Of a stretch of 64,000 nt of DNA, positions 14,487-44,550 are shown piece by piece; position 1 is the first letter of the stretch; each line of letters opens with the position of its first letter. The notes under the pieces are model-generated. The model was not told the DNA's origin and searched no databases. It saw nothing but the letters and a program-made list of their open reading frames with translations. This stretch comes from Candidatus Marinacidobacterales bacterium (GTDB taxonomy: Bacteria; Acidobacteriota; Vicinamibacteria; Marinacidobacterales; SMYC01), in assembly GCA_965237955.1 (NCBI GenBank), contig OZ250169.1:3040001-3104000 (forward strand), read 5' to 3'. The position numbers and the translations under genes were made by a program.

Positions 14487-15968
14487 CTACCGGTCGGCAA
14501 GGGGTTCCGACAGCAACCGCCGCGCCGCTGCCAGGAGTCGATCCTTCCAGGCAACGCGTTCCCGCCAGTGGTCGGGGATGGCGTTCAGGCCGTAGAGGGC
14601 GCCGGCGAGCTGCCCCGTCACTGCTGCTACCGTATCGGCGTCGTCGGCCAGGTTGGCCGCGAGCAGCACCGCGCTGCGGAAGTCTCCGGTGCGGGCGACT
14701 GACCAGATGGCGGCTTCGAGCGTGTGAACGACGTACCCGCTGGAGCGGATCGTATCCCGTGTCCGTCCTCGCCAGCTACCGGCTATGACCTGAGTGATTG
14801 CCGCCGCTCCCGTGAACCGTCTCGGAGCCAGAACGTCCGAGAACGGTGACCCGCCAATGGCGTCTGCCAGGAGTGCGCCGAACGCCCGGCAGGCGTCCAC
14901 TGCTTCCTCGGCTCCGTGGGTCGTCCGGGACTGGTCGGCGGCTGTTGCGAGCAGGCGCGGCCGGTCGTGCCTGAACCGGAGCGCAACGGGGGCGAGCCGC
15001 ATCAGCGAGCCGTTGCCTGCGCTCAAGGGATCGGTCGAACCCGCGACCGGGTCACCCGTCCGTAGGTACCGGGTGAGCGCTTGGCAGGTCGTGTTTCCGA
15101 TGTCGAAGCAGTCTCCGCTCCACGAGTAGTCTCCGTCTCGCCACCACTTCACGAAACGGTCCATCAGGTCCCGGCAGTCGAGCGTCTTGGATTCCGCCAG
15201 GCTGTCGGCAAGGGCCAGCGCCATGGCCGTGTCGTCGGTCCAGGCACCGGCCGGCAGATCGAAGGGGCCGCCACCGACCATGTCTTCTAGACGCGGCTGC
15301 GTATCGCGAGAGCAGAATTCGAGCGTCGTGCCGACCGCGTCGCCCACCGCCAGACCGAGGAAGGCCCCGAGCGCCCGGTCGTGGATGTCGTCCGCGGTCC
15401 GGGATGGAACCGATGGTGCTCGTGCCGAACACTGCCTCACGTGGGCCAGCTGGGAGTCGTTCTCGATGGTCCCTTCGTGGGCGTCGCGCACGCGGCGGAT
15501 CGCATCGTCCGGTTGCACGCCCAACTCCACCAGCAGGCGGGCTGTGATGGTCCCGGCACGTCCCAGACCACCCCGGCAGTGGAGCAGCACGTCGAAGCCG
15601 AGCCGCAGCCGGTTCCTGATGGACTCGCCGGTGGCCTTCCAGGCGTGCTCGAAGTCCTGTTCCGGCGCCTCTCCGTCGGGAATCTGGGCATGCCACCACT
15701 CCATGTGCCGGTCTCGAACCGCCCTCGGGAGATCGTGCACCTTCAGACAGGCGAGCTCTTCGTGGGTGATCAGGCTGACCACCGCAGTCGCTCCCCAGTG
15801 CTGAATCGCGTCGAGGTCGGTGTCGAGATCCCGCTTCCAGGGCCCGGATATTGCGTAGCGATCGATCCTACCGGGGCACTGCGAGAAGCCGATTCGGCCC
15901 CGGCCGTCGCCCAGGGTCATCGCCGTGATGCGGAGTGGGTGGCTCTCGCTGGTTCTTGCCGTCGGCAT
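14487..15968 (-). CDS. Protein-tyrosine/dual-specificity phosphatase fused to ADP-ribosylglycohydrolase (DraG/ARH)
   Basis: HCRGGLGR P-loop; GLAVGDAVG, WTDDTAMA, GNGSLMR, DADT ARH motifs. Confidence 0.88.
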   Translation of the reverse strand: MPTARTSESHPLRITAMTLGDGRGRIGFSQCPGRIDRYAISGPWKRDLDTDLDAIQHWGATAVVSLITHEELACLKVHDLPRAVRDRHMEWWHAQIPDGEAPEQDFEHAWKATGESIRNRLRLGFDVLLHCRGGLGRAGTITARLLVELGVQPDDAIRRVRDAHEGTIENDSQLAHVRQCSARAPSVPSRTADDIHDRALGAFLGLAVGDAVGTTLEFCSRDTQPRLEDMVGGGPFDLPAGAWTDDTAMALALADSLAESKTLDCRDLMDRFVKWWRDGDYSWSGDCFDIGNTTCQALTRYLRTGDPVAGSTDPLSAGNGSLMRLAPVALRFRHDRPRLLATAADQSRTTHGAEEAVDACRAFGALLADAIGGSPFSDVLAPRRFTGAAAITQVIAGSWRGRTRDTIRSSGYVVHTLEAAIWSVARTGDFRSAVLLAANLADDADTVAAVTGQLAGALYGLNAIPDHWRERVAWKDRLLAAARRLLSEPLADR

Positions 15969-16703: not shown

Positions 16704-18345
16704 ATGGCTACACACTCTGAGTATTTGGCAGGCCTGACATTAGAGGACCGCACTGCGCTTGAAGGTCGCCTGCTCGAACGGCAGTCCGGAAAATGCTTCA
16801 TTTGTGACGACACCATCGATCCCGTACTCCACCAGGATCAGCTCGACGTTGACCATACCGTCCCGCTGGCCGAGCAAGGCGCAGACGACGAGCACAACTT
16901 CGCTCTGACTCATGCGAGCTGCAATCGGAGCAAGGGCGCGTCCGACCTGCGAGTGGCACGCCGCATGGCGGAATTCGAGAAGCTCCAGCAGCAAGCCCTT
17001 GAGCGTGGCGAACGCGGAGCGAACCTGGGACACGTGCTTGCCAAGCATGGCGGGGCCAAGGCTGCCATTCGACTCCGGAATTCGGGTGGCAGGATCGAGT
17101 TCACTCTGTCGGCCGCCGGTGACGAAACGATTCAGAGTGTTCCCCTGTATCAAGATCCCATGAGCGGCATGATGTACTTCTTTAGCGTGTTTCCGCTGGA
17201 GTACATCCACCACGACGACTGTATCAACCCGCGTTCCATTGGGAGAAGCATACGCCCGCTGATCGAGGAGTTCTTGCGGAAGCGACCCCAACTGCACGTT
17301 GGCCTGGCGTGGTGGGCACCGGAAGAAGACGGCACAGGAAAGATCAAGATGTTTGACGGACAGCACAAAGCGGCGGCCCAGATTCTCATTGGCAGCCGAG
17401 AGCTTCCGGTGCGCGTATTCGTCAAGCCAGATCTTAACGTTCTGGTCCAGGCAAACACCAACGCCGCTGATAAGCCAAGGCAGGTCGCGTTCGACACGGC
17501 GGTTCTGCGGCACCTCGGCAGCACCCTGTACGCCGAACGAGTCAAGCGGTACCGGGAGTTAAAAGGACTCATAGATGACGATGATTCCTTCAGCGAAAAG
17601 GACCTCGTAGCGTTTTTCCACGGCGAGCGCAGAGAGGTACAGAAATACATCGTCGACTGGGTGCGGGACTCGGTGAACTACCACCGGGACAATCGCCTCA
17701 AGGAGTATGTGGAATGGGCCGGCAAGAAGGGAGATAGGTCGCTCGCTTACGCGACCCTGGAACGAACATTCTTCGCGGAATTTCTTTGCAAGTACGCCCT
17801 CGACACGCCGATCGGACTCGGCATGGACCGTGGAGACAATCCGCGAATGATCGAGCGAGACCAGCTGGTCCGGCTGATGAGTCTGTACGCCGACATCTTC
17901 TTCGTGGGTCAGTGGGATCCGGACCTGGGCGGACGACGTCTGGAAGGGCCGCCTCCAGAAAGGGGAAGTCATCGCCGAGGGACACCTTCGGGCGTGGCGC
18001 GTTACGCGCGAGGAGATTCTGGCTATGATCATGCAGCACGTCCGGCTTGCGATCGAGAACTACTTCGCCTGGCAAGGCAAACTAATCGAAAAGGACCGGT
18101 TGATGCAGTACCGGCTTCCAGAAGACGTCTGGGCGCGGGTCGAGACATTTCTCCGCCGTCTGTCAGGTCTGCCGGCGTGGATCGACAAGAACCTCAGCAA
18201 CACGGTCTTCGGTGCTAAGCAGAATCGAGATTTCTGGGCGGAGGTCTTCAAAACAGGAAGAAGCACGACCGGTGTTCAGGTTTTCACAGGGCCCATTAAC
18301 GTCATCGACATGATGCAAGAATCAGGCTCAGGGCGGACACGATGA
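16704..18345 (+). pseudogene. HNH endonuclease plus DGQHR/ParB-like domain protein, single frameshift near 17947
   Basis: CFIC..DVDH..NFALTH.SCN; MFDGQHK; removing one G from GAAGGGCC joins the 16704 and 18025 ORFs (LEGRLQKGEVIAEGHLRAWR). Confidence 0.7.
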
Positions 18346-18878
18346 AGATCCCCGGCAAAGCAAACGTCAACAAATCGCTAGTGGACCTCAGGAAGAGTCT
18401 CAAGGAGTGTCTGGCCCAGGTCAATCAGGAGGCAGGGATGTTGCTCTCCAAGGGCAGCTATGCGCGCGCCGAATCGCTAGTCAAAGTCGCGAAGTCCGTC
18501 GACACTTTCCGCGTCGACGTTGAGAGCCTCCACACACGGTGGAAGGAGATCAAAGGCGGACCTCAAGGTACCGCCAAGACGCCACAAACTCCGCTCTGGG
18601 AGTACTACCAGCCAATCCTTCAGGCCCTTATAGATCTCGACGGTGCTGCCAAGTCCGCTGAGATTGAGCCAGCAGTCGGACTCCTGCTGAAGGGTCGTCT
18701 TGTTGAAGGCGATCTGAGCATCATGGCCAATGGGAGCGCGCGCTGGCAGGCCATGATTCGCAGAGCCAGAAAACACATGGTGAAGGAAGGCCTTCTCGAC
18801 AGCGATACGGGGATGGACTGGAAGATCACGCAACAGGGACGCAAGGCGGCCGCAGCCAGGAAGAACGCAAAGGGTTGA
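18342..18878 (+). CDS. Mrr N-terminal-like winged-helix protein
   Basis: YYQPILQALIDLDG..D....NG..RW...IRRAR..MVKEGLL....W.IT..G; ATGA overlap with the upstream gene. Confidence 0.75.
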   Translation: MKIPGKANVNKSLVDLRKSLKECLAQVNQEAGMLLSKGSYARAESLVKVAKSVDTFRVDVESLHTRWKEIKGGPQGTAKTPQTPLWEYYQPILQALIDLDGAAKSAEIEPAVGLLLKGRLVEGDLSIMANGSARWQAMIRRARKHMVKEGLLDSDTGMDWKITQQGRKAAAARKNAKG

Positions 18879-19063
18879 GGCCATTCCCTACGAACGTTTG
18901 AGCGGTCCTCTCTGAAGACTGTATGGCTGAGGCTTCGGCATTGACGCGGCCGGATGGGCGACACTTGGCATCGGGCTCTAACGGTACCTGTGGCGCGCGG
19001 TGTTTGAGGCCGGCGACGTCATGCGACCTCTTGCCCGGGCAACCTGTGAGTATCGGATAGACA

Positions 19064-20497
19064 ATGGCCAACCCATTCTTCGATCACCCCATCCTGAATT
19101 CGCCCTATGAGTGCCCACAGCGGCACTGGGAGTTGGACTTCGAGGGGCAGCCGACGCATCAGGTCTTGGACCGCCGTCGGCGCGCCGAGTTCATCACGCC
19201 GATTCCAAAGCCGAAGAAGCGGAAAGACCGGCAGCAGGCCGAGATAGTCTTCGACGAGGGGAAAGGCCTCTCCACCAAGGAACAGCAATACGATCCGACC
19301 TCCATCATCAATGAAGTGCGTCAAAACGTGGATGTGTGGCGGGACTTGCCTAACCCCAACCAGTGGCAGGTCAGCCCGGAAACCGCGCGCCTGCTCCAGC
19401 ACTGGCGGCGCCACCCGTTCGGCAGCATCCGCCCGTTCTTTTGTCAGGTGGAAGCCGTCGAAACTGCGATCTGGCTGACCGAGGTCGCGCCACAATCCAA
19501 GGGCGGTAAACGGTTGCTCAACCACTTGGCCAGAGCCAACAAGGACGCCAATCCCGAACTGATGCGCCTCGCGCTGAAGCTGGCCACCGGGGCCGGTAAG
19601 ACAACTGTCATGGCCATGCTGATCGCGTGGCAGACCATCAATGCGGTGCGCCGCCCCGGCAGCAAGTCCTTCACCCGAGGCTTCCTGGTCGTCGCACCAG
19701 GTCTGACCATCAAGGATCGGCTCCGCGTCCTCCAGCCGAACGACCCGGACAGTTACTACGCCAGCCGAGAGCTCGTGCCGCACGACCTGCTCGATGACGT
19801 GAACCGTGCCAAGATCGTTATCACCAATTACCACGCCTTCAAGTTACGCGAGCGCATCGAGCTGTCTGCCGGCGGACGCGCGTTGCTCAGGGGCCGCACC
19901 GGCGACGAGCTGAACACCACTGAAACCGAAGGGCAGATGCTCCAGCGTGCCATGCCTGACCTGATGGGCATCAAGAACATCCTGGTGCTCAACGACGAGG
20001 CGCACCATTGCTACCGCGAGAAGCCACCGGAGCCGGACGATGCGCATCTGAAGGGCGACGACAGAAAGGAGGCCGAAAAGAACAACGAAGCGGCCCGCCT
20101 CTGGATCTCCGGTCTCGAAGCTGTGAATCGTAAGCTCGGCCTCTCCCGTGTGATCGACCTGTCCGCCACGCCATTCTTCCTGAGCGGGTCCGGCTATGCC
20201 GAGGGCACGCTCTTCCCATGGACGATGAGCGACTTCTCGCTGATGGACGCCATTGAGTGCGGCATCGTGAAACTGCCACGCGTCCCGGTCGCGGAAAACA
20301 TTCCCGGCGACGAAATGCCCGTCTATCGCGACCTTTGGAAGAACATCCGCAATAAGATGCCTAAGAAGGGGCGCAGCCAGGGCGGAGAGCTTGATCCGCT
20401 CAAACTGCCCACTCGACTGCAAACCGCTCTTGCGGCGCTCTACGGGCACTACGAGAAGACCTTCACGCTGTGGGAGGCAGGGGGCATTCGTGTGCCA
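19064..20497 (+). pseudogene. Type III restriction Res-like SF2 helicase, 3'-truncated
   Basis: PILNSPY, FFCQ.EA.ET, ATGAGKT, NDEAHH, DLSATP; interrupted by rve-1 end at 20498. Confidence 0.8.
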
Positions 20498-21597
20498 CCC
20501 CGTCCTGTGCCAAAACTCGGCCCTTTTGAAATAGCCTATAAATCAACAGCTTAGAGTCTGTGTTTTGCGACCGGGTTAAGGGCCGTGGGCTTCACAATCG
20601 TCTGGCCCGAGGGTGTTATCTTTGGAGCCATCATGACGTACCACGTGCAATTCTTACTGCTCGTTCTGGCGGGCTGGGTCAACCGCCAGCAGCAGGATGT
20701 GATTGATTAGCTGCGAGAGGAGAACCGTGTGCTCCGAGCCGGGCTTCGGGGTTGCGCCAGAGTTTCACTTCAACCACCACCAGATGCCCCTCTGGCGTGA
20801 TGAACAGGTTGTCCACCGACCCAACGTGGAGCGGAAGTTCCATACAGACGGGCACGAGAGGGCCGATACCCGGCTCGATCTGGTCCATGGGCAGACACGT
20901 CGGATGCTGGTGGATGAGTTCTTGCAACCAGCGCTCGTCCAAGTTGGAGGCTTGGTGCAGGCGCGTGGATTCGCCTTCCGACACCAGAATTGGCGTTCCG
21001 CTCGCGGTAGTCAATTCGTGCTCCAGGGTTGATCTCGCCGGTCGGGTCGGCCTCGGCCGACGTCGGCAGGTTCTTGAGTGCGCCTCGCAGGCGCGTATAT
21101 CCCCACGTCGGGTTCTCCCGCGCCACGCGCACAATGAGACTCACGGATGTCCTTCGCCGTCGGAGGTCGGCCTGGACTCCGGTTCTTGCTGCCATCGTAC
21201 TTGGCTGCGATGAGGCAGCGGTACCAGCGCAGAAGCGTAGCGGGTGTGGCAACGGACGCAATCTGGGCCAGCGCCTCGCGGCCCAAAGCCTGGGCCTTGA
21301 CCGCGAGCCTGCGCCGCTCGTCGTCCGAGAGCCTGAGACGCTTGCCCCGAAGCCCGGCTCGGAGCACACGGTTCTCCTCTTGCAGGTAGTCGATCACATC
21401 CTGCTGCTGGCGGTTGACCCAGCCAGCTAGAACGAGCAGTAAGAATTGCACGTGGTACGTCATCATGGACCTGAAGATAACACCCTCGGGCCAGACGATT
21501 GTAAAGCCTACGGCCCTTGGCCCCGGCGCAAACACAGACACTAAGCTGCTGATTTATGGCCTATTTCAAAAGGGCCGAGTTTTGGCACAGGACGGGG
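20498..21597. mobile_element. Two inward-facing rve-1 left-end fragments enclosing a nuclease fragment
   Basis: CCCCGTCCTGTGCCAAAA at 20498 and its complement at 21580-21597; both carry [11 protein letters not shown] starts. Confidence 0.75.
20740..21040 (-). pseudogene. NucS-like PD-(D/E)XK endonuclease fragment
   Basis: E.WLQELI...P, G.VDNLF..PEG.LVVVEVKLWRNPEAR. Confidence 0.6.
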
Positions 21598-21885: not shown

Positions 21886-22860
21886 TTAGCGTGCACGATA
21901 CAAGACCTCTGATACACGAAGGGATACGGCACTAGGGATTATTGCCGAACCTTTAACCAACTCCCGTAGAGAGTCTCTCGCATTATCGGATTCGGGCACA
22001 TTAGATCCAATCGTGATCTGACTACCAGTATTAAGAATCGACTCGCAATTCAATTCTGGAATCTGAACGTACTGTCTAACACGACCATATTGTACATGCT
22101 TTCCTCGAATGGCGTCCTGCACGTCCTTTTCATCATCCTCTGACAGAAATGCGACAGCCCTATATTCCCGTTCCATTGCATAGTGCGACCTTTTCCGAAG
22201 AAATCTTTGTCTAAACAGAGGATCACACGCCGCAACAACCCCCAGGCAAATCTCTGACCAGAGGTTCGCATCCAACGCACGACTGTGTAGGTCCTCAAGA
22301 TCTCTCAAGAACGTCGAGAACACTGATAAGTCCATCTGTATTGGCAACTCATCAGCGTACGTGATCTTTCCGACAATTGTATTGTCAACTAGTTCTCTCG
22401 ATAAATGAGGGGGAATTGTAATAGACACACCGCGGCAGTCACTACCATAAAGTCTCCAAAACAGGAGATCATCCCCCGCATCTATCGTTTGCCCGTCTGT
22501 GTGCTCAATACCAACAAAACAGCAAACATTCGCTGCGCCGTAGCGTTTCCACACCCATGACTCTTTGCCCAATTTTTGCAGCAAACATGAAATGAAACTA
22601 CCTTCAGACGTAACGCGGCCCTCTTCCGGGTCATTCATTGTTGACGTGTCTGAAAGTCTGAGCCCCCCATCTGGTGCTTGGAGCATGGAAACGATTACTT
22701 CCAAAGAAGTGTAGTGAGCCAAGTGCAACGTCACTGGCGGGTCATCTCCCGACCGCGAGATAGATTGTACGTCGTTCCATCGTCGTTGAAGCTCGCGCGC
22801 TTGCGCGGTAATGTCGACAGCTTTCTGGCGCAAGACTTCGAATGTTTGAGACCTACTCAT
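21886..22860 (-). CDS. DUF2971 domain protein
   Basis: HYTSLE, MNDPEEG, DDLLFWRLYG..CRGVSI, K..HY.MEREYR; starts 3 bp after the E1 stop. Confidence 0.72.
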   Translation of the reverse strand: MSRSQTFEVLRQKAVDITAQARELQRRWNDVQSISRSGDDPPVTLHLAHYTSLEVIVSMLQAPDGGLRLSDTSTMNDPEEGRVTSEGSFISCLLQKLGKESWVWKRYGAANVCCFVGIEHTDGQTIDAGDDLLFWRLYGSDCRGVSITIPPHLSRELVDNTIVGKITYADELPIQMDLSVFSTFLRDLEDLHSRALDANLWSEICLGVVAACDPLFRQRFLRKRSHYAMEREYRAVAFLSEDDEKDVQDAIRGKHVQYGRVRQYVQIPELNCESILNTGSQITIGSNVPESDNARDSLRELVKGSAIIPSAVSLRVSEVLYRAR

Positions 22861-22863
22861 GAG

Positions 22864-24270
22864 TCAGCAAGCGTCGGCGTTGAGCAGAAGCCACGCAGGT
22901 TCACCAAGGTTGCCTTGGCTGCTTCGAGCGTGAACGTCACAATAGGGTTTGCAAATCTCTGTGTCCGCTTGCTGAGAAGCTACGCTAAGGTGAAAACGTT
23001 GTTGATACACGGGAGGCCACCATTTCGGGCCGAGTATCAACCTTGTGAATAGGGCAAGTTGCTGTGATGAAGCCATCAAGCTAGCTGGGAAAATGTTGGC
23101 CGTATTCGGCCGTTGATGCATCAGTTGGCTTCGGATGTACTCCGGATCTTCCAAAAGACCCTCCAGCTCCAGGCTCAGTTGGTCGGTCGTGTATTGCCGA
23201 GTGCATCTAAGACACCTACTGTCGGGTGTGACGACCTGAGAGACAATATGCCCCTTGTGTAAATGACCTTCACGACTTCGAAGAGCGACGCCAGCTTCTA
23301 TTGTCGGGATCAAATGGCATACAGCCAAATGATTAACTAGATCACGTGCAATGGGTTTGTCTGCACATGCTAGGATGACATCGCAATCTGCGAGAGACCG
23401 ATATGCTTTGGATTCACGAAGGGAGAGTGGGAAAGCGAGAAGCTCGCGAAAAGGATAAGCCGCTGTCCGTTCTAAGTGTTCTGCAGCAACGTCAACTTTG
23501 TATCGTCCAACATCCCAGCGACCGGCGTTAATGAGGCGATCTAAGTTATGTCGCTTCACGCGGTCCATATCTATCATGACCAGCCGCCTAACGCCCATGC
23601 GTCCCATGGCCTCGGCCGCCAGAGCTCCCACGCTGCCTAGACCGACTATTCCGACCTTCAGCCGTTCAAGAAGTTCTTGACCTCCAACACCCCATGTCTC
23701 GATCGAACGCCGAAATCTATCGAAAACTGGCCCCGTCAAGTAAGACCTACATTCGTGCGGATTTGTTTGGAGAGACAAGTGGCTAGGAGAAACTATGCGG
23801 ATCGAAGAGCACCAATGACGTTCGTAATCTCGCCCCTTTCGAATCCAGAACCGAGCGCTCCATGTTCCGTCTGTGCCTAGCGTCAACCCCAATGCAGGTA
23901 GTCCAGTAGCCCGAGCAGGATTAGAGACGCTCCTTTGCTCCATCACAACGTCGTCCGAACTCATTTCCTGCCAACCCGGACCGAGATGATTGTGCATTAC
24001 CGCCATCCCCGCACCCTTCGATAGCGCTCGCTCGCGACACCGACGCAGAAAATCGCGAGTCATTTGGACATTGCCCTGAAGAATACGTTCATCTTCATTA
24101 GGCAGAAGCACTTCATCAATGATTGCCGTGTAGCGATTGGCACCATCGGCCGGATACCAAGTGGCTAGCGCAATATCCTCTTGTAGATCGCCACGTTCGT
24201 AGTGCTGTAGTAGGTGCTGCCGGGCAACCGATTCGATTTCGGAACGCCAAGCTACTGAGTACGTGGTCAT
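22864..24270 (-). CDS. JAB/JAMM peptidase - E1 (ThiF/MoeB) fusion
   Basis: QED...MHNH..(8)..SSDD; GLGSVG, DMD.V..HNLDR, CAD, CLRC; ATG at 24270 overlaps the E2 stop (ATGA). Confidence 0.85.
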   Translation of the reverse strand: MTTYSVAWRSEIESVARQHLLQHYERGDLQEDIALATWYPADGANRYTAIIDEVLLPNEDERILQGNVQMTRDFLRRCRERALSKGAGMAVMHNHLGPGWQEMSSDDVVMEQRSVSNPARATGLPALGLTLGTDGTWSARFWIRKGRDYERHWCSSIRIVSPSHLSLQTNPHECRSYLTGPVFDRFRRSIETWGVGGQELLERLKVGIVGLGSVGALAAEAMGRMGVRRLVMIDMDRVKRHNLDRLINAGRWDVGRYKVDVAAEHLERTAAYPFRELLAFPLSLRESKAYRSLADCDVILACADKPIARDLVNHLAVCHLIPTIEAGVALRSREGHLHKGHIVSQVVTPDSRCLRCTRQYTTDQLSLELEGLLEDPEYIRSQLMHQRPNTANIFPASLMASSQQLALFTRLILGPKWWPPVYQQRFHLSVASQQADTEICKPYCDVHARSSQGNLGEPAWLLLNADAC

Positions 24271-24671
24271 TTCGCGGCCTTCCAGAAACGTGCTACGGTT
24301 GATCGCATCAGCTTTTTGGGAGTTCGGTACGGTGCTACCCACGACAGTCCAATTGGGCGGCTCCGTGCCAACCACAACGTGTCATTCTCGTCGTGATCTT
24401 CTTCACTCGCGCCCCCTTTTCCATCGTCATACCTCCCCGCTATATGGAACCAATGGGGAGCGTATTCAGGAAACGGTTGCGAGTCATCTGGAAAGCTCCA
24501 TCCAACCCGCTGGGTGGATCCAGCGTATCTGCCAGTATGCACGGGAACTCGAGCACGTAGCATGTGTCGCTGAAGCCATGAGCATATCTCTAGCTCAGCG
24601 ACACTTATTTCGGAGAGTGCGTCTCGTAGCCGGACAAGATTCGGCGGGAAAGAGTCGGTTAGAGGCTTCAC
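24267..24671 (-). CDS. Prokaryotic E2/UBC-like protein
   Basis: Position between Ubl and E1; FP..APHWFH and W.A.SRP..W pattern. Confidence 0.6.
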   Translation of the reverse strand: MKPLTDSFPPNLVRLRDALSEISVAELEICSWLQRHMLRARVPVHTGRYAGSTQRVGWSFPDDSQPFPEYAPHWFHIAGRYDDGKGGASEEDHDENDTLWLARSRPIGLSWVAPYRTPKKLMRSTVARFWKAAK

Positions 24672-24703
24672 CAGTCAATATTCTTGTTTAGGCAGTACGA
24701 GAC

Positions 24704-24961
24704 CTATGAAGCGGGCCCCGGTTCATTTTCCGTCGCAAAGAACACATTGATCTTATCCAGATCAACTACAGCATCGGGGGCGAAGGTGTTGCCCTTGCCA
24801 TCCTCCAGTGTGTACCCGTCCGGAACAGGATCAAGCGCTTTGAACTCCAATGCGATGTCGATAAGCTCTGCAACCGTCATCGATTCGCGCGGAGCGTACA
24901 GCTGCTCACCGTCGATCTTGAATTCAAAGCGCCCGTCCTTGGCGACTTCATCTTTGTCCAT
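24704..24961 (-). CDS. Ubiquitin-like beta-grasp (multiubiquitin-type) protein
   Basis: F.FKIDG....A....MT..EL....Y.L...D..VDL...VF; tail EPGPAS; AGGAG RBS. Confidence 0.65.
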   Translation of the reverse strand: MDKDEVAKDGRFEFKIDGEQLYAPRESMTVAELIDIALEFKALDPVPDGYTLEDGKGNTFAPDAVVDLDKINVFFATENEPGPAS

Positions 24962-25177
24962 GTCTCTTCTCCTAAGGCTGCGACCAGCCGATGAAATTTG
25001 TGGTCCGATCCAACGTTTGGGGGTTCAGTACCAATGCGGTCCCCCCTCCGCCATCGGCAAGCTCAACCATGTATGCTAGTGTTTCCGCGTAGTTTAGGCA
25101 AACCTTCGGGTAGTTGCGGATCCAGCGTTGATTGCACGGTTTAGACCTGCCACGATCGGCTGCTCCGTGCCGGTCGA

Positions 25178-27390: not shown

Positions 27391-28848
27391 CTACGCCTTG
27401 TCGAGCTTCGCGTCATAGACCAGCGCGAGCTTTGCTTTCCCGACTTTCCGGCGATACTCATTTCGGAGAGCACCGATCCTCTGCCACTCGCCGCTTGCGT
27501 CGCGGCAGTACCAGTAGTCCCACCCGTTCCCCGATTTGCTGGTCACGGCAGAGAAGGCCGTGCTCGGGCTGTCGTGGCACTCGTTGTTTACCTCCAGTTG
27601 TCCGTTGCTCTTAATGCGGCCCCGGACGACTTCGCCCTTGAACGATAGACGCCACTGGTCACCGTAACGGACGAGTCCGGCCTTCAAGAGATCCCCGATA
27701 GTAACGCGCTGGCCGTGCACACTGACCGGTCCCCCCTTGGCCCGATTGCCGCCTTCCGGCCCGCTGTCCTGGACAGCATCGTCGGTGTGAATTGCCTTGG
27801 CCCCGAGATCCACCGGGGTCCGGACCAGCGCGAGCTTCGCTTTTCCGACTCGCCGGCGATACTCACTTCGGAGAGCATCGATCCTCTGCCATTCGCCCCC
27901 AGCGTCGCGGTAGTGCCAGTAGTACCACCCGTTGCCCGGCTTGCTGGTCACGGCAGAGAAGGCTTTGCTCGGGTTACCGTGACCCTTGTTGTTAACCTCC
28001 AGCTGTCCGTTTCTCTCAATGCGGCCCCAGACGACTTCGCCCTTGAGCGATAGACGCCACTGGTCACCCTCACGGACGAGTCCAGTCTTCAAAAGATCCC
28101 CGATAGTAACGCGCTTGCCGTGCGCACTGACGGGCCCTCCCTTGGCCCGATTGCCGCTTTCCAGCACACTGTCTTGGACCGCATCGTCGGTGTGAATTGC
28201 CTCGGCCTCAAGATCCACCGGGATTCGGCCGGCTTCGTCTGAGATCGATTCCACATAAGCCTTGATGTGCTTCATGCTGATCTTGATCCCATCAGGCAGC
28301 CCAACTCGTTCTTCCTTGAACTCTCGCTGAATTGCCTTACACAACGTGTCGAAAGGAGTGCTGAGCAGGCTATCGAGAGCCAGTTTGATCCGGCTGTGAA
28401 TCATGTGCTCTTCGTACGCGTGCTGGATCTCTTCGTTCTCCAGACACTCGCGTGACAGCAGGCTGGTGAGATGCTTGAGGAACTCGTCCATCGTAAACCC
28501 GCTGTCGGTGTCCACCGTCTTGATCTCTAGCGTGAGGAACTTCTGTTCCTCGAAAGACTTGCCACCGCGGGAGTTGTAGAGGACGTACCGGTTGCCGTCA
28601 GATAGAACGCCCCATTGAACCCCCATCGCGCCGAGGTAGGAGGTGAGCTGCTTGACGTGGTTCTTGTGGCCGATGTTGCTACCGAGTCGCTTGGCCTCCA
28701 AGAGCAGGATGGGTTTCGCAGACTTTTTTTTCGAGCTGTAAAACGCGTAGTCGACCGGCTCGTTGAATTCGGGCACGCGTGGCTCACTCTTGATGGAGTC
28801 AAAATCGGTAAAGTCCCACTGGAGCGCGCGAAACAACGAGTTGATGAG
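27391..28848 (-). pseudogene. HsdR-N-type restriction endonuclease with two C-terminal RAMA-like domains, 5'-truncated
   Basis: PE...VDYA...LLEAK..Q...Y....W..LSDG; 2x TIGDLL..GLV...GQLEV...PS.AF...NGW.YW; cut by the element at 28850. Confidence 0.72.
27420..28222 (-). repeat. In-frame tandem duplication, period 405 bp (135 codons)
   Basis: CCAGCGCGAGC at 27420/27825; AGATCCACCGGG at 27806/28211. Confidence 0.9.
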
Positions 28849-30354: not shown

Positions 30355-31590
30355 CTAGGAGGACGCATTACGCGACTGTGTTGCTCTAGACTTGGCGCCC
30401 ACAATTGCTTCGAACAGGTGATCGAGAAGCAGTTCAAGCTTCGAAGTGTCGTAGGCCGAAGGCAAAGGCCGAGACTCCAAGAACCGCTTCGTGTATCGCT
30501 CCTTTGCGATCAATTCACCCTGATACAAATCGATATTGGAATTGTAGGAAGTCCACCTGACGCAAGGCTCCGGGCCCGTTCGGAGATCAAGGAACGACTC
30601 AATGGAGATCGCTCGACCGTTGATGTCTTCTTGGGCAGATCCGTTCGGCCCATTCGTACGAAACAGTCTGCATTCAAGAATGTCTGGCAGTCTGACGACC
30701 ACCATGTTTGACGGCAGCAGCAACCGTTTGACCTTGCGCTGCGCCTCGAGTCCTGCGGCATCGTTGTCGAAAATAACCACGATTTTGTTCTGGACCTTGA
30801 TTTGTGCAAGGCCTTGGCAGAATCGAAACAGATTACCGGCACCGGTAAACGGGTAGTTCTCTGACATGTCGACAAAATGGAAAAAATCTACAATGTCCGG
30901 CCGGAGTAACTCCATGGCTTTGCGAATGATCGCACCGTCGGAGCTGCCCTCGGTAACGATCAAGTACCGGTCAGGCTCACTTAGGCCTTCACAGAATGAC
31001 GATTCCTCCACCCACCCGCCTTCCACTAGGTCGGCAAAGCGCCACTGAACCTCTAAATCAAGATTAGTGGGATTCTCGGCCAGAAGCCGAAGAGTGACGT
31101 ACGGGTCGAGATTCTCGAAGAAGATACCATCGAATCTGCTCAAACCTTCTAGTTTCTTGACCGTCTTTGTGAACTCGGGATCCCTCAAGATCGATCGAGC
31201 AGCGAACCCCCCCGGACTGTGGTCCGCAAACCAGGGGTCGAACTTTATCTTGTGCACATCGACAGCCGCGAGCGCTCCGGCGAACGCGTCGAAGCTCACG
31301 TCGGGCACTTCGTAGAAGTCTGATCCCCACGACAGATCTTCTTTGAAGCACCGCTTGGCTTCCGAAAGGGTGTAGCCGAGTAGCTCGAGTCTGCGCTTTA
31401 TGCTGCGCAAGGGGCGTGCTAGGCCAGGTTTAAGCTCCTCGGTAACCTTTTCAGTCTCCGGGTCGAAGTAGTGGTAGGAAACAGGCTTGACGTCACCTGG
31501 CAGGAAAAGCTTCGAATGACTGGCATAGTTCCAGTTCTTGCCCCAATCAATTTCCAGCTGACCGAGCCCAAGCGTTACGATAGAACCCAT
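30355..31590 (-). CDS. HEPN/Toprim-associated N-terminal domain plus Toprim nuclease-like domain
   Basis: MGS.......EIDWGKN...HS.LF; IVTEGSSD; FDND. Confidence 0.72.
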   Translation of the reverse strand: MGSIVTLGLGQLEIDWGKNWNYASHSKLFLPGDVKPVSYHYFDPETEKVTEELKPGLARPLRSIKRRLELLGYTLSEAKRCFKEDLSWGSDFYEVPDVSFDAFAGALAAVDVHKIKFDPWFADHSPGGFAARSILRDPEFTKTVKKLEGLSRFDGIFFENLDPYVTLRLLAENPTNLDLEVQWRFADLVEGGWVEESSFCEGLSEPDRYLIVTEGSSDGAIIRKAMELLRPDIVDFFHFVDMSENYPFTGAGNLFRFCQGLAQIKVQNKIVVIFDNDAAGLEAQRKVKRLLLPSNMVVVRLPDILECRLFRTNGPNGSAQEDINGRAISIESFLDLRTGPEPCVRWTSYNSNIDLYQGELIAKERYTKRFLESRPLPSAYDTSKLELLLDHLFEAIVGAKSRATQSRNASS

Positions 31591-31779
31591 CGGTTCAAAA
31601 AAGCCAACCTCTCTCGTAAAAGCGGAATTTCCTAGTGTAAGACATTTTCCAGCGGATTTCACGAGTCAAGATTCTGAAGGAGGTGAACAACGAGGTCCGG
31701 GATACGATGACCGAGACTGTTGCTCACCCGATTAAGAAGACGCTAACCAAGCACAGCCTAATGCGCGGTTCCCGGCTTG

Positions 31780-34607: not shown

Positions 34608-35783
34608 TCAAGTCAATTGCTTGACTCGGACGACTGACGGCGGGTCAAGTACAAGCAGAGGATTTGGTTTGTTGTCCCAGTGGTCAGGGTCCAGATCTCT
34701 TTGGGACGCGAAGATTACGATTGATCGCCCATCCGCACAATGAGCGCTTGGGTAGACGATTCCGTCGATGTCGAAACTGCCATTGGCCAAGGACCGATGG
34801 CGGAAGTACTCTGTGAGGATCTGTGTCGGAACGTATTCGATGTGTTCTCTCCCGTCGTGTTCGACGGGCTGTGTAATGGCCCGCACGAACTCGCGAAGAA
34901 ACATCAAAGGATCTCTCTCGTCGCGAGGTATAGCAAAAATGCTGGGAACAGAGGGAAGCTTTGTCAGGTCCAGCACATAGAGTTCTCGCGTGTTAGTCCA
35001 TTCGGCGCAGGTCAGAATGTGCTCGCCAGCCGGGAGGTTTGCTGAGACCTCGGCTCGCGCCGTAGCCATGTCGAACGCAGCGTAGAACATGCTGATGCCG
35101 GCAGCGCTCATGCGGTTTGCAATAGCTTCGCTATCCGGCGGGGAGCCGAGAGACTGCCATGTGTTGCAGATTTCAGCTCGGCTGTGCGGGCGGACTCGAA
35201 AAAACCGCGTGGCCACTGGCAGCATTCCTACTAGATTGACCCTCGAAATGATGTCTCGGAGTTCGTCCAGCATTCGCGGAACGGGAATTGTTTCGGGGAA
35301 GTCTTCCTCTTGCTCCGTGGTGTCGAAGAAGTAACGAATCTTGTGTTTTACGGTGTTGCAGAAATCAGTCCAGCTAGCTGTGTAGCGGTCTACTCCGTTC
35401 AGGCGGTACATGTCCAGCTCGCACCACGTCTCATCTCCGATCGATTCGATAATTGCTTCGTTGACAGCCTCGCGGTGGCTCAGCTCGTCGAGGCGATAAG
35501 AGATCAATTCCGAGGTGTCCAATGTGTCACCTAAATAGCCCCCTTCCTCAGAGTCCCACCCGGCTTCGTTTACAGCGTGGTCGTAGTATTGAAAGATCGT
35601 GTCCTTGATGATCTCCATGAAAGTGTCGAATGGCACGCTGTGTCGCCCACGACGGTGACAGAAGGTGCATGGCGAAACGCTTGCTGCACGTTGAATTTGC
35701 TGTTTTAGATAGGGGTCGGAAACGCATTGCGAGCAGATCAGCTGTTCCGAAAAATGCCAGTCCTCTGCTTTGGAAATAGACAT
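34608..35783 (-). CDS. RES-domain protein with HEPN/RES-type N-terminal Zn-binding domain
   Basis: CSQC..D, CTFC; FRVR, SPP....NRMS.AGISMFY, A.AE, EYVPTQ..TEY, DGIVYPS. Confidence 0.8.
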   Translation of the reverse strand: MSISKAEDWHFSEQLICSQCVSDPYLKQQIQRAASVSPCTFCHRRGRHSVPFDTFMEIIKDTIFQYYDHAVNEAGWDSEEGGYLGDTLDTSELISYRLDELSHREAVNEAIIESIGDETWCELDMYRLNGVDRYTASWTDFCNTVKHKIRYFFDTTEQEEDFPETIPVPRMLDELRDIISRVNLVGMLPVATRFFRVRPHSRAEICNTWQSLGSPPDSEAIANRMSAAGISMFYAAFDMATARAEVSANLPAGEHILTCAEWTNTRELYVLDLTKLPSVPSIFAIPRDERDPLMFLREFVRAITQPVEHDGREHIEYVPTQILTEYFRHRSLANGSFDIDGIVYPSAHCADGRSIVIFASQRDLDPDHWDNKPNPLLVLDPPSVVRVKQLT

Positions 35784-41967: not shown

Positions 41968-42705
41968 CTATCGTCGTGCTGCCTCTGCTGCTATGTGGCC
42001 TGCCAGTACGCTCGCAAAAGTCTGCAAACCCGTCATCTCGCTCAACTCTGAATATTTGCCGGTATTGGCCGCAGAGCGCGGGGAAACAATGAGCGACGCG
42101 GCAGTATAGAGCTGTTCCTGCACAAGCTTGCGGCACAAAATGTTGTAGCGCTCTGCGTACGATGCCCCTTTAAACTCCGGGAACACTGGGAAATGAGGCG
42201 ATACATCACGGACCGGCGACCGAGATTGCTCAGCATCTTCCATTAGCATCATCCAGCCGACGAACGGCCGGGATTGCTCGCCGAAAGCACCTTCCCGGTA
42301 AGCGGTCCAAAGATCGAGCGCGGTACCGATGGCCTCTTCGGTCCGGTTATTGCAATTGTTACCGAATGACGGCCCTACTTGGCTCTTGAACTCCAGGGCA
42401 GCAATAAGGCGGCCGTCGTTGACAACAAGCAAATCCCAAAGCTTGGTCGGACGAAAATAGCCTGGTAGCGTGACAACGCGGCGTTTCCTGTGAATGTCGG
42501 CATGGTCCAGACCGTTCGTGCGAACGATATCCATGACAAGAGCAACGAACCCGTCCATGTTTTTGCCAGCTGTCACGCCGGCACGCTCTCCCTGGTCAAC
42601 ATTTCCGGACCCGATTTGCTTTTGCCGCGCCTGCTCGCGGCTGATCCAGAAGGCCTGAACCGCCTTGCACGCCTTCTGTTCGTAATTTGAGAGGTCGATG
42701 GCCAT
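41968..42705 (-). CDS. Type II restriction endonuclease, PaeR7I/XhoI family
   Basis: [45 protein letters not shown]. Confidence 0.88.
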
Positions 42706-42716
42706 GCGATTCCTTC

Positions 42717-44444
42717 CTATCCCTCTCCGTTTCTACCAAGGACTGTTCGTTCTTCATTTGAAAGGCGGTAGAGCTTGAAGGCTGCTGCATTGCACGCCAG
42801 CGTATCTCCACGTTTTGCTGCCGCAGTTAGCACTGTCTTAATCTCGGGAGGCACATCCTTCCAGCGCGGCAGGCGAATACGCCGGAGATACTGCGCCTGA
42901 AAGCGTAGATAACCGCCGCGCATCTGGGTTGAATAGATAGAGACAAACAGCCGGGCGACCCCGGATCGCAGGACTGCTTGTAGCGCTATCAAATCCCACT
43001 CATCGGACGTTATGAAATAGAGATTGTGGTGCGGGTAGAGCTGGCCGTTTTCATAGACGATATGGGCCTCACCCTTGATATCCGGGATGAGCAGCTTCGG
43101 TTTCTTCGCAAGAGTCGGATAAATCCGGTCAATGGTTCGATACCAATTTGCTGGAACCTTTTGGGCGATGTGGCGCTTGGCAATCTGGTCTTTGCGCGCT
43201 TCCAGATAACGTCTAAGCCTAGGATATTGGTCGAGCTTGACAAGTCCGTCTTCATCGTCAAACGGATTGACGATACCAAGGCCACGCCAATTGACCTCAC
43301 CGCTCAAGATATCGCGTGTCATAGCAAGGGGCAGTTTGCGATCTAGCTCTACGTCAAGCTCGTCATAGGGGCCGATAAAGGCCTTGTCTGCACCGGTCGC
43401 AACGCCGATGCCAACCTTGCATCCCGCGTCTTCAATGAGAGGAAAGTCGCGTTCAAAGCGGCGCACCAGAGCCAATTGTTCCAGAGATTCTAGTATCCAC
43501 GGTTCCGCACCCATCGCCACACCGGCAAGTTCTTTCACGAGGCTGTCTGGTTTGGGGGGTTGGATTGCCAGGAGTTCGCGGGTTAGGGCGCGCAGCACTT
43601 TTCTGGTGATCTCCGGTCGTCGGGCAATCCGGGTCTTACCAGGCTTTTCCCTGCCGATGATGGTGATGGCGGGATACGCGATCACGTTTTCATGGAAGGC
43701 CGGAGTATTCACCATGTCCACATAGGCTCTCAAATGAAAGCGCTCTGCAACCATCTGGCGTAACTGCCTGCCGTAACGGTTCTTCACCCAGCGGTCAGCA
43801 CAGATGAAACCGAGCACACCGCCTTTCGAGAGAAGGCTGAGCGAGCGCTCGATAAAGGGGATATATAGATCGGCCCGGTCAAAGATCGTGGTGTAGCGCG
43901 AGCGATATTCAGCAATCAGAGCGTCCGGAATTAGTTCCTGCCGAACATATGGGGGATTGCCGACGACATGATCGAATCTGCCCAGCAGCGGTGCCTGCAG
44001 GAAATCACCGCATATGAGCCAAGTCCCTGCAAGCTGCTCGGCGGTCTTAGGAGCAATCCCCTCTTGTGTGAGAAGGGCAATGACCTTCAGGCGCGTTGCG
44101 ACGTAAGAAGCCTTGTGCAGTTCCACCGCGCGAATGCTGTCCTTCAAGCTATCAAATACGTCATGCCTGCCGTCATGTCGTATCCACGCCTTGAGTAGGC
44201 GCTCGACAACGATGAGCAGAAAATCACCTTCTCCGAAAGACGGTTCTAGAATGCGGCGTTTGTATAAAGCCCTGTCGTGCGTGTAGCACAGCAGGTCGAG
44301 GATGAATTCGACGACCTCGGGCCGGGTGAAGATCGCCCCCCTTTCCTCAATGCCGGCAGCGGCGAGACCCTCCAACGCATCTTCAACCGGACACATGCCG
44401 GGCAACGAACCTTGGTGAAGATGTTGTTGAACTGGTTCAATCAT
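42717..44444 (-). CDS. N6-adenine DNA methyltransferase, M.PaeR7I/TaqI-like
   Basis: [46 protein letters not shown]. Confidence 0.88.
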
Positions 44445-44550
44445 TTCTGGAAGCGCCCTGCGCAACGCCAAGGCATCGCTCAGACTCTTTTTGCGACATC
44501 AATAGTCTTTGGCTCTACTTTCTTCCCTGCGACACTTATCCAGCGGCTTT

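Follow-up and report, generated by a model that had tools for sequence, protein, structure and literature searches.

The window analysed here is a stretch of 64,000 nucleotides (nt) on contig OZ250169.1 (positions 3,040,001 to 3,104,000 of assembly GCA_965237955.1, from a Candidatus Marinacidobacterales bacterium), and at 21886-24961, in window numbering, it contains four consecutive, intact open reading frames (ORFs) on the minus strand. Three of them encode a ubiquitin-like protein (Ubl), a ubiquitin-conjugating enzyme (E2) and a fusion of a JAB peptidase with a ubiquitin-activating enzyme (E1), which together are a core of the bacterial ubiquitination-like (Bub) type; the fourth encodes a predicted ADP-ribosyltransferase (ART) toxin of the DUF2971 family. 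Together the four genes likely serve against phage, as a module whose tagging part governs the toxin. More specifically, conserved residues and gene neighbourhoods suggest that the Cys-free conjugation core may hold the ART in check until phage infection, a proposal to which we give about an even chance. The features are as follows:

24704..24961, minus strand: Ubl, BubA-like, a single multiubiquitin-family domain of 85 amino acids (aa), assigned by profile homology; Ser85 is the likely reactive end
24267..24671, minus strand: Cys-free E2, BubB-like, 134 aa, with invariant His73 and Ser104 and a structure model
22864..24270, minus strand: JAB peptidase-E1 fusion, BubCD-like, 468 aa, with a ThiF match of 114.5 bits and BubCD as best Protein Data Bank (PDB) match
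21886..22860, minus strand: DUF2971-family predicted ART, 324 aa, with H49, Y138, E230-x-E232 and R234
24969..24973, minus strand: Shine-Dalgarno-like AGGAG before the Ubl start, kept in four of the five close relatives aligned

An earlier note, made from the sequence alone, had described the junctions of the four genes as overlapping or near-abutting, and so they are: 32 nt separate the Ubl and E2 ORFs, the E2 and JAB-E1 ORFs overlap by 4 nt, and 3 nt lie between JAB-E1 and the DUF2971-like ORF. The E2 starts with GTG, which is kept in all five close relatives aligned. An N-terminal extension of the E2, or read-through past the TGA two codons upstream, was considered and rejected, this stretch not being conserved in the same five relatives. 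For the E1, the ATG at 24270 rather than the GTG at 24375 was taken as the start, in agreement with most close homologues, whose length is likewise 468 aa. The cassette has a G+C content of 51.6%, lower than its 3-kb flanks (60.4% and 58.4%), as the note had it, and than the 8.1-Mb genome as a whole (60.2%); only 0.45% of equal-length windows of the genome are as low. A 3.2-kb block made up of the four genes and about 100 nt upstream is common with a related locus (L003) at 85% identity. Since the ratios of nonsynonymous to synonymous substitution rates against this relative are 0.10 for the Ubl, 0.26 for the E2, 0.10 for JAB-E1 and 0.27 for the DUF2971 gene, all four genes are under purifying selection. 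A promoter scan found one site where 3.2 were expected.

The best PDB match of the JAB-E1 protein is Citrobacter BubCD (E 5e-13), only the E1 part being significant. The JAMM residues E31/H93/H95/D107, the adenylation residue R245 and the crossover-loop Tyr378 are all invariant in 40 of 40 homologues, and so are C353/C356/C440/C444, which likely form a zinc site. The crossover-loop Tyr, in a loop without Cys, was found in all 110 parsed homologues (of 120) and in all 73 parsed loci of our locus set, which was drawn from 403 matches of the JAB-E1 alignment in genomes by taking the best 80; all of their hosts are metagenome-assembled genomes. In the E2, His73 and Ser104 are invariant in 94 of 94 homologues, Ser104 is present in 106 of the 110 aligned representatives with a residue at that column, and Pro106 occupies position +2 from the Ser in 91 of 94. 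The sole Cys of the window E2, C30, is not conserved, nor is any other Cys in the family (94 members), which bears out the earlier description of an E2 with Ser and no Cys in its C-terminal half. All the motifs quoted at that time are present: WLARSRP in the E2, PEYI after CLRC in the E1, P-G-P-A-S at the Ubl end, and HY and ExExR in the DUF2971 protein. The E2 model has a predicted local distance difference test (pLDDT) value of 93.6, and its best structural match is Citrobacter BubB (9eav_D, Z 8.1, root mean square deviation (rmsd) 4.2, 120 residues aligned), followed by ubiquitin E2 variant (UEV) and E2 domains. BubB was found by a wide structural search; a Foldseek search of the PDB with the same model had no hit at E<=0.001, a profile search of the E2 alignment against PDB sequences gave no relevant match, and Pfam Prok-E2_E is matched by 10 of 83 family members. 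The Tyr of the E1 and the Ser of the E2 are reported to be required for conjugation in Bub systems (Ye et al., PMC11601596). From that report and the residues conserved here we infer that the core would conjugate through oxyesters on E1 Tyr378 and E2 Ser104, the chemistry that the earlier note had suggested.

No bubE gene is found in the cassette operon. Its genome has two hits to PF20137 (DUF6527), both more than 2.6 Mb from the cassette, and among the host genomes searched for 50 of the 80 loci, 11 have a DUF6527 hit, none inside the locus and the nearest about 27 kb outside it, coordinates not being comparable for three multi-contig genomes. A two-sequence BubE profile likewise had no hit in 91 loci. 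Ye et al. state that all Bub operons carry bubE (PMC11601596); because their catalogue is defined by DUF6527 and was built from operons containing it, it could not include a family without BubE. The genome of the window also has a canonical-looking Type II Bub operon (L093, G000:C1:130786-133962), with a Ubl ending in Ser, an E2-E1 fusion and BubE, and a lone BubE gene beside an insertion sequence (IS) and repeat sequence (L094). The E2 family profile had no significant match to the Type II E2 of this genome, and the Ubl profile matched its Type II Ubl weakly, with a probability of 39%.

By homology, the Ubl appears to be a beta-grasp protein of the multiubiquitin family. Pfam Multi_ubiq is matched by 21 of 82 family members (best E 4.4e-7), four plasmid proteins, of which three have a multiubiquitin annotation, are matched by the family profile (E 2e-11 to 6e-8), and the Atlas leads for the Ubl score 0.86-0.87; a profile search of the Ubl alignment against PDB sequences gave no relevant match. 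The C-terminus of the family is T-x-V-A/S: among 82 aligned Ubls, the column of Gly82 is Thr in 75, that of Ala84 is Val in 75, and the terminal column of Ser85 is Ala in 71 and Ser in nine. Short variable tails follow T-P-V-A in some of them. Of 21 Ubl-E2 fusions found in two other libraries, 14 have T-x-V-[A/S/T] where Ubl and E2 join; of the others, two end in V-S and five have no such motif. As this family alignment, the fusion junctions and the four plasmid Ubls, which end in V-A, all point to the same position, Ser85 is likely the mature and reactive end.

The earlier note had proposed instead that the JAB removes P-A-S and exposes Gly82, which would then be the reactive end, an arrangement comparable to Type II Bil. 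Although Gly82 is present in six of six Ubls of the close clade, we find this very improbable. Ser85, and not Gly82, is in register with the terminal Ala of the family, the last 10 residues of 50 of the 85 Ubl genes are Gly-free, the fusions have their T-x-V-A/S motif at the junction, and cleavage before Pro is generally poor. Moreover, every Ubl of the close clade keeps the P-A-S tail, whereas the tails of Bil Ubls are reported as non-conserved and trimmed to a conserved Gly (PMC10557695). Ubl diversity has been covered in PMC11601603, and ends other than Gly have been described elsewhere: E. coli Type II BubA ends in Ser and forms ATP-dependent conjugates in vitro without a JAB (PMC11601596), and cyclases of CBASS (anti-phage signalling based on cyclic oligonucleotides) may end in Ala (PMC10449767).

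The fourth protein on its own scores 17.8 bits against Pfam DUF2971 (PF11185), under the cut-off of 22, and its assignment is therefore based on its relatives, of which 38 of 58 match DUF2971 at E<=0.01, and on its nearest Atlas clusters, which are DUF2971 at 0.96-0.97. The ART-like pattern seen in the earlier analysis has held up: H49 is kept in 56 of 58 relatives, and Y138, E230, E232 and R234 in all 58. The structure model (pLDDT 90.5) has DarT as its best match (7omv, Z 7.0, rmsd 3.6, 147 residues aligned), followed by Tpt1 (Z 6.7) and DarTG (6.4 and 6.2), all of them modest and below the tool's caution level of Z 8. The model suggests a DarT-like fold. DUF2971 has been predicted to be an ART of the HYE clade related to DarT and AbiGi (PMC12522546), according to which Y138 could be ART motif II. 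Aristaios, a DUF2971 gene, is described as a single-gene anti-phage (abortive-infection) system that affects phage transcription (PMC11381338, PMC13064643). Two other roles for the gene and its surroundings were set aside. The C-terminus of the DUF2971 protein is a basic Y-R motif, and a CBASS-like conjugated enzyme was rejected on this ground. An ADP-ribosylglycohydrolase gene of the window was rejected as antitoxin: it lies 5.9 kb away and has no match in loci L001-L092, and no conserved antitoxin-like or glycohydrolase neighbour was found beside the DUF2971 gene among related loci.

The core and the DUF2971 gene are linked across genomes. Ubl and E2 lie upstream of the E1 in 79 of the 80 loci, and a DUF2971 homologue is present in 58, under 12 phylum labels, so that a pairing unfamiliar at the time of the earlier note turns out to recur. 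Sponge microbiomes are suggested by some of the host names, Ca. Spongiihabitans and Ca. Entotheonella among them. The DUF2971 gene is within 400 nt of the E1 gene in 57 of the 58 loci, 46 of the 58 being convergent and 12 co-directional. In a quick, midpoint-rooted E1 tree, loci with the gene occur on either side of the deepest split, and the E1 and DUF2971 distances correlate (Mantel rho 0.88). The dependence appears to go one way: where the DUF2971 hit is full-length, the core is intact in 56 of 57 loci, and 21 of 80 intact cores are without a DUF2971 hit, one of them at a locus that ends 199 nt after the E1 and shows the 5' end of the gene. In a 99%-identical copy of the cassette (L002), the Ubl is disrupted, the E2 stops early and the DUF2971 gene is cut after about 60 residues. 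Five Dehalococcoidia loci (L040, L043, L055, L063 and L067) have an extra, stand-alone E2 that faces the DUF2971 gene on the opposite strand. These second E2s keep the catalytic His and Ser, and a clear ribosome-binding site precedes those of L040, L043 and L063; they are 68-97% alike and their DUF2971 proteins 44-87%, as mutual nearest relatives, with the operon's own E2 only about 55-62% alike. The one-way dependence, the joint loss in L002 and the second E2s are all consistent with an ART in need of its own E2, though each of them represents one or a few events. We also searched in the reverse direction with a DUF2971 profile over 970 genomes (401 + 401 + 168), obtaining 14 non-self hits, of which 10 were strong (E<1e-50) and all of these beside a JAB-E1 gene.

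In the mechanism that we propose, following Ye et al. for its conjugation steps, the E1 would adenylate the free C-terminus of the Ubl (Ser85), which would be passed as an oxyester to E1 Tyr378 and then to E2 Ser104, and the E2 would transfer it onto a lysine. In Ubl precursors that are fused or extended, cleavage by the JAB would fall after V-A/S; where the Ubl is unextended and BubE is absent, this peptidase would be the only candidate eraser, reversing the tag. The ART would be a target or client of its own E2, silenced by conjugation, and infection would free it to ADP-ribosylate nucleic acid or protein and so abort the infection, as reported for Aristaios. Co-folding of the E2 with the DUF2971 protein scored 0.00 in two runs, a result that has no bearing on whether they bind. 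With a conserved, predicted toxic enzyme at its side, the core gains a named candidate target, for which toxicity, ADP-ribosylation or phage protection could serve as a simple read-out.

Several observations weigh against this proposal. The rho of 0.88 shows co-inheritance among kin, near-copies included, and not interaction, and the convergence of most pairs means separate transcription at these loci. Locus L045 has a full-length DUF2971 gene and a shortened Ubl hit. Nine of the 10 strong reverse hits come from genomes that supplied the profile, which makes this test weak; the tenth (L097) has a DUF2971 gene with an interrupted look, and around the four weak hits (E 1e-13 to 4e-22) no core lies within 1.5 kb. 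The five loci with a second E2 descend, as far as can be told, from one event. In addition, no Bub operon protected E. coli from phage in the experiments of Ye et al. (PMC11601596), and Aristaios works as a single gene (PMC11381338), so that DUF2971 proteins need no conjugation partner in general.

The last point, together with the mostly convergent orientation, favours an alternative in which two independent defence modules travel together by shared mobility or complementary action, the core tagging phage proteins like Bil and the DUF2971 gene being a free-standing, Aristaios-like gene. The core is also seen beside other genes (in 7 of 80 loci an AAA ATPase, elsewhere TIR, patatin with a CD-NTase-like gene, or SDH protease), and toxin-antitoxin or Abi genes stand beside it on actinobacterial plasmids. 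Even so, we regard independence as rather unlikely. The pair is kept down to about 40% E1 and 25% DUF2971 identity, across the 12 phyla, through a change of orientation and nearly always directly adjacent; the other neighbour clusters cover at most 12 loci each, and the reverse search gave no strong DUF2971 hit away from a core.

Alternatively, the ART could be a regulator of the core that ADP-ribosylates the Ubl, E2 or E1 and takes the place of BubE as an off-switch. In the clade of the window the DUF2971 gene follows JAB-E1, and no bubE was found in the locus in any of the 50 host genomes searched. The ExE motif, invariant here, is typical of arginine-directed protein ARTs, and an Arg follows the E2 Ser in 83 of 94 homologues, the 11 in which it is replaced all belonging to an AAA-ATPase clade without DUF2971. 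However, BubE is absent also where DUF2971 is absent, the Arg occurs in Citrobacter BubB and in plasmid E2s without DUF2971, and its loss is confined to one clade. The best fold matches, DarT and Tpt1, act on nucleic acid. We consider a regulatory ART improbable.

Of the 22 loci without a DUF2971 hit, two show the 5' end of the gene only, L002 being truncated and L007 lying at a contig end. Seven of the 80 loci are one clade with an AAA ATPase gene in the place of DUF2971, and the rest have varied neighbours. A second core without BubE, of the AAA-ATPase type, is found in the window's own genome (L090, G000:C1:694820-699145), with a two-domain Ubl ending in T-P-V-A, a His/Ser E2, a JAB-E1 (42% identical) and then an AAA ATPase gene; the same order of genes is seen in 13 loci, all of them without DUF2971. 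A tentative suggestion, to which we give somewhat less credence than to silencing of the ART as such, is that these cores form a third Bub subtype, without BubE, with a Ubl ending in Ala or Ser and a His/Ser E2, where conjugation is a direct on/off switch of an exchangeable toxic effector, that effector being the DUF2971 ART at most loci and the AAA-ATPase module in the sister clade. If this were true, it would give Bub pathways their first physiological target, their targets and biological role being left open by Ye et al. (PMC11601596). Bub chemistry would likewise come to include a family in which the tags end in Ala and the E2 active site differs.

With regard to published systems, the core fits neither Bub type. 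Type I Bub (the 6E.1 or DUF6527 operons, with Citrobacter BubAB-BubCD-BubE) has, like the cassette, a JAB-E1 fusion with JAMM, a crossover Tyr, a Cys-free BubB-fold E2 with Ser and a multiubiquitin Ubl, and some published Type I operons, too, have the Ubl and E2 as split genes (PMC11601596, Table S1). In contrast to Type I, the cassette operon has no bubE, its Ubl family ends in Ala or Ser and not in Gly, and a DUF2971 gene is attached; by eye, His73 of its E2 stands at BubB Asp299 and Pro106 at BubB His335, and the first Cys pair of the likely zinc site of its E1 is not seen at that position in BubCD. Type II Bub (E. coli ZDHYS365 BubA-BubBD-BubE) resembles it in that the Ubl may end in Ser, in a His upstream of the E2 Ser (by eye) and in a Tyr-type E1, whereas in Type II the E2 is fused to the E1, BubE is present and a JAB is typically absent; the cassette has a separate E2 and a JAB fused to the E1. 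An operon class named 6E, with JAB-E1, a multi-beta-grasp Ubl and a Cys-less E2, has been known since 2006 (PMC1779556), its chemistry having been added by Ye et al. Our literature search, which left most subscription papers and some parts of supplements outside its coverage, found no report of a BubE-less subtype or of a link between Bub and DUF2971. The missing bubE, the different arrangement of the E2 active site, the Aristaios family and the usually convergent pairing were all absent from the earlier note.

Among other defence systems, Bil (BilABCD) likewise combines Ubl, E2, JAB and E1, lacks an E3 and lies in a defence island, but its JAB is separate, its E1 is of the IAD-AAD-CYS kind with Cys, its E2 has a Cys and its Ubl Gly is universally conserved (PMC10557695). 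In Type II CBASS, the Cap2/Cap3 proteins, as E1, E2 and JAB, regulate an adjacent immune enzyme and a C-terminal Ala is tolerated (PMC10449767); there, however, conjugation uses Cys thioesters and what serves as the tag is the enzyme itself, while the cassette has a separate Ubl and a DUF2971 protein with a basic Y-R tail. Aristaios belongs to the same Pfam family as the ART and is of similar size (324 aa here against 316), with a predicted ART fold and conserved His, Tyr and ExE, the likeness being drawn at the level of the family (PMC11381338, PMC12522546, PMC13064643). It is described as a stand-alone lactococcal gene, whereas the strong hits of the core-linked subfamily lie only beside a conjugation core. 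DarT is the best structural match of the DUF2971 model, but in comparison with DarTG the cassette has no conserved glycohydrolase antitoxin beside the gene.

Further arrangements of the core were observed in individual loci. Downstream of the E1, at the position where DUF2971 usually stands, are a TIR/SEFIR protein in L018, an SDH-type protease in L064 and, judged by eye, a patatin with a CD-NTase-like gene in L080. A small ORF, PIN-like by eye, follows the AAA ATPase in at least two loci (L081 and L089), and the one scanned had no Pfam hit. In actinobacteria, the core was found at four plasmid loci and three further genome loci, with no DUF2971 or BubE hit at any of them. On the plasmids (L099-L102, from Rhodococcus, Clavibacter and Nocardioides), the three-gene core stands beside HigA/RelE-type, Abi or ImmA/IrrE genes, and these cultured actinobacteria would be tractable models of the core. 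A haloarchaeal cluster of three genes, on a Halanaeroarchaeum plasmid (L103), consists of a JAB-E1-like gene with two small genes upstream of it, of which the first ends in G-G-V-V; neither is matched by the Ubl or E2 profiles. A metagenome scan gave one unrelated ThiF-like locus, and a viral scan none. The Ubl-E2 pair or the Ubl gene alone is duplicated in tandem upstream of the core (L021, L030, L032; L036, L039, L041). In L040, L043, L054, L058, L063, L067, L068 and L071, a helix-turn-helix-like gene and a conserved partner, CapH/CapP-like by eye, lie upstream of the Ubl; CapH/CapP regulators have been reported at Bub operons.

The window is a defence island: besides many transposases, it has genes with HEPN-RES, HEPN-Toprim, RAMA and HNH domains, a restriction-modification pair of the XhoI type and a type III restriction gene that is truncated. 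The cassette had been described as intact amid decay. The four genes are indeed intact, and their flanks contain multi-copy repeats, several IS110 copies and the type III restriction gene, which matches profile positions 1-461 of 970 only; other defence-type genes are nevertheless also present in the window, which qualifies the picture of decay. On the minus strand, HsdR_N-RAMA-RAMA, HEPN-Toprim, HEPN-RES and the XhoI-type pair lie at 27391-28836, 30358-31662, 34611-35783 and 41971-44471, respectively. On the plus strand, 16704-20554 has an HNH gene whose tail apparently continues in another frame (18025-18345), an Mrr_N gene and the type III restriction gene, cut by a repeat at about half its length. 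The ADP-ribosylglycohydrolase mentioned above is part of a phosphatase fusion at 14490-15968 on the minus strand.

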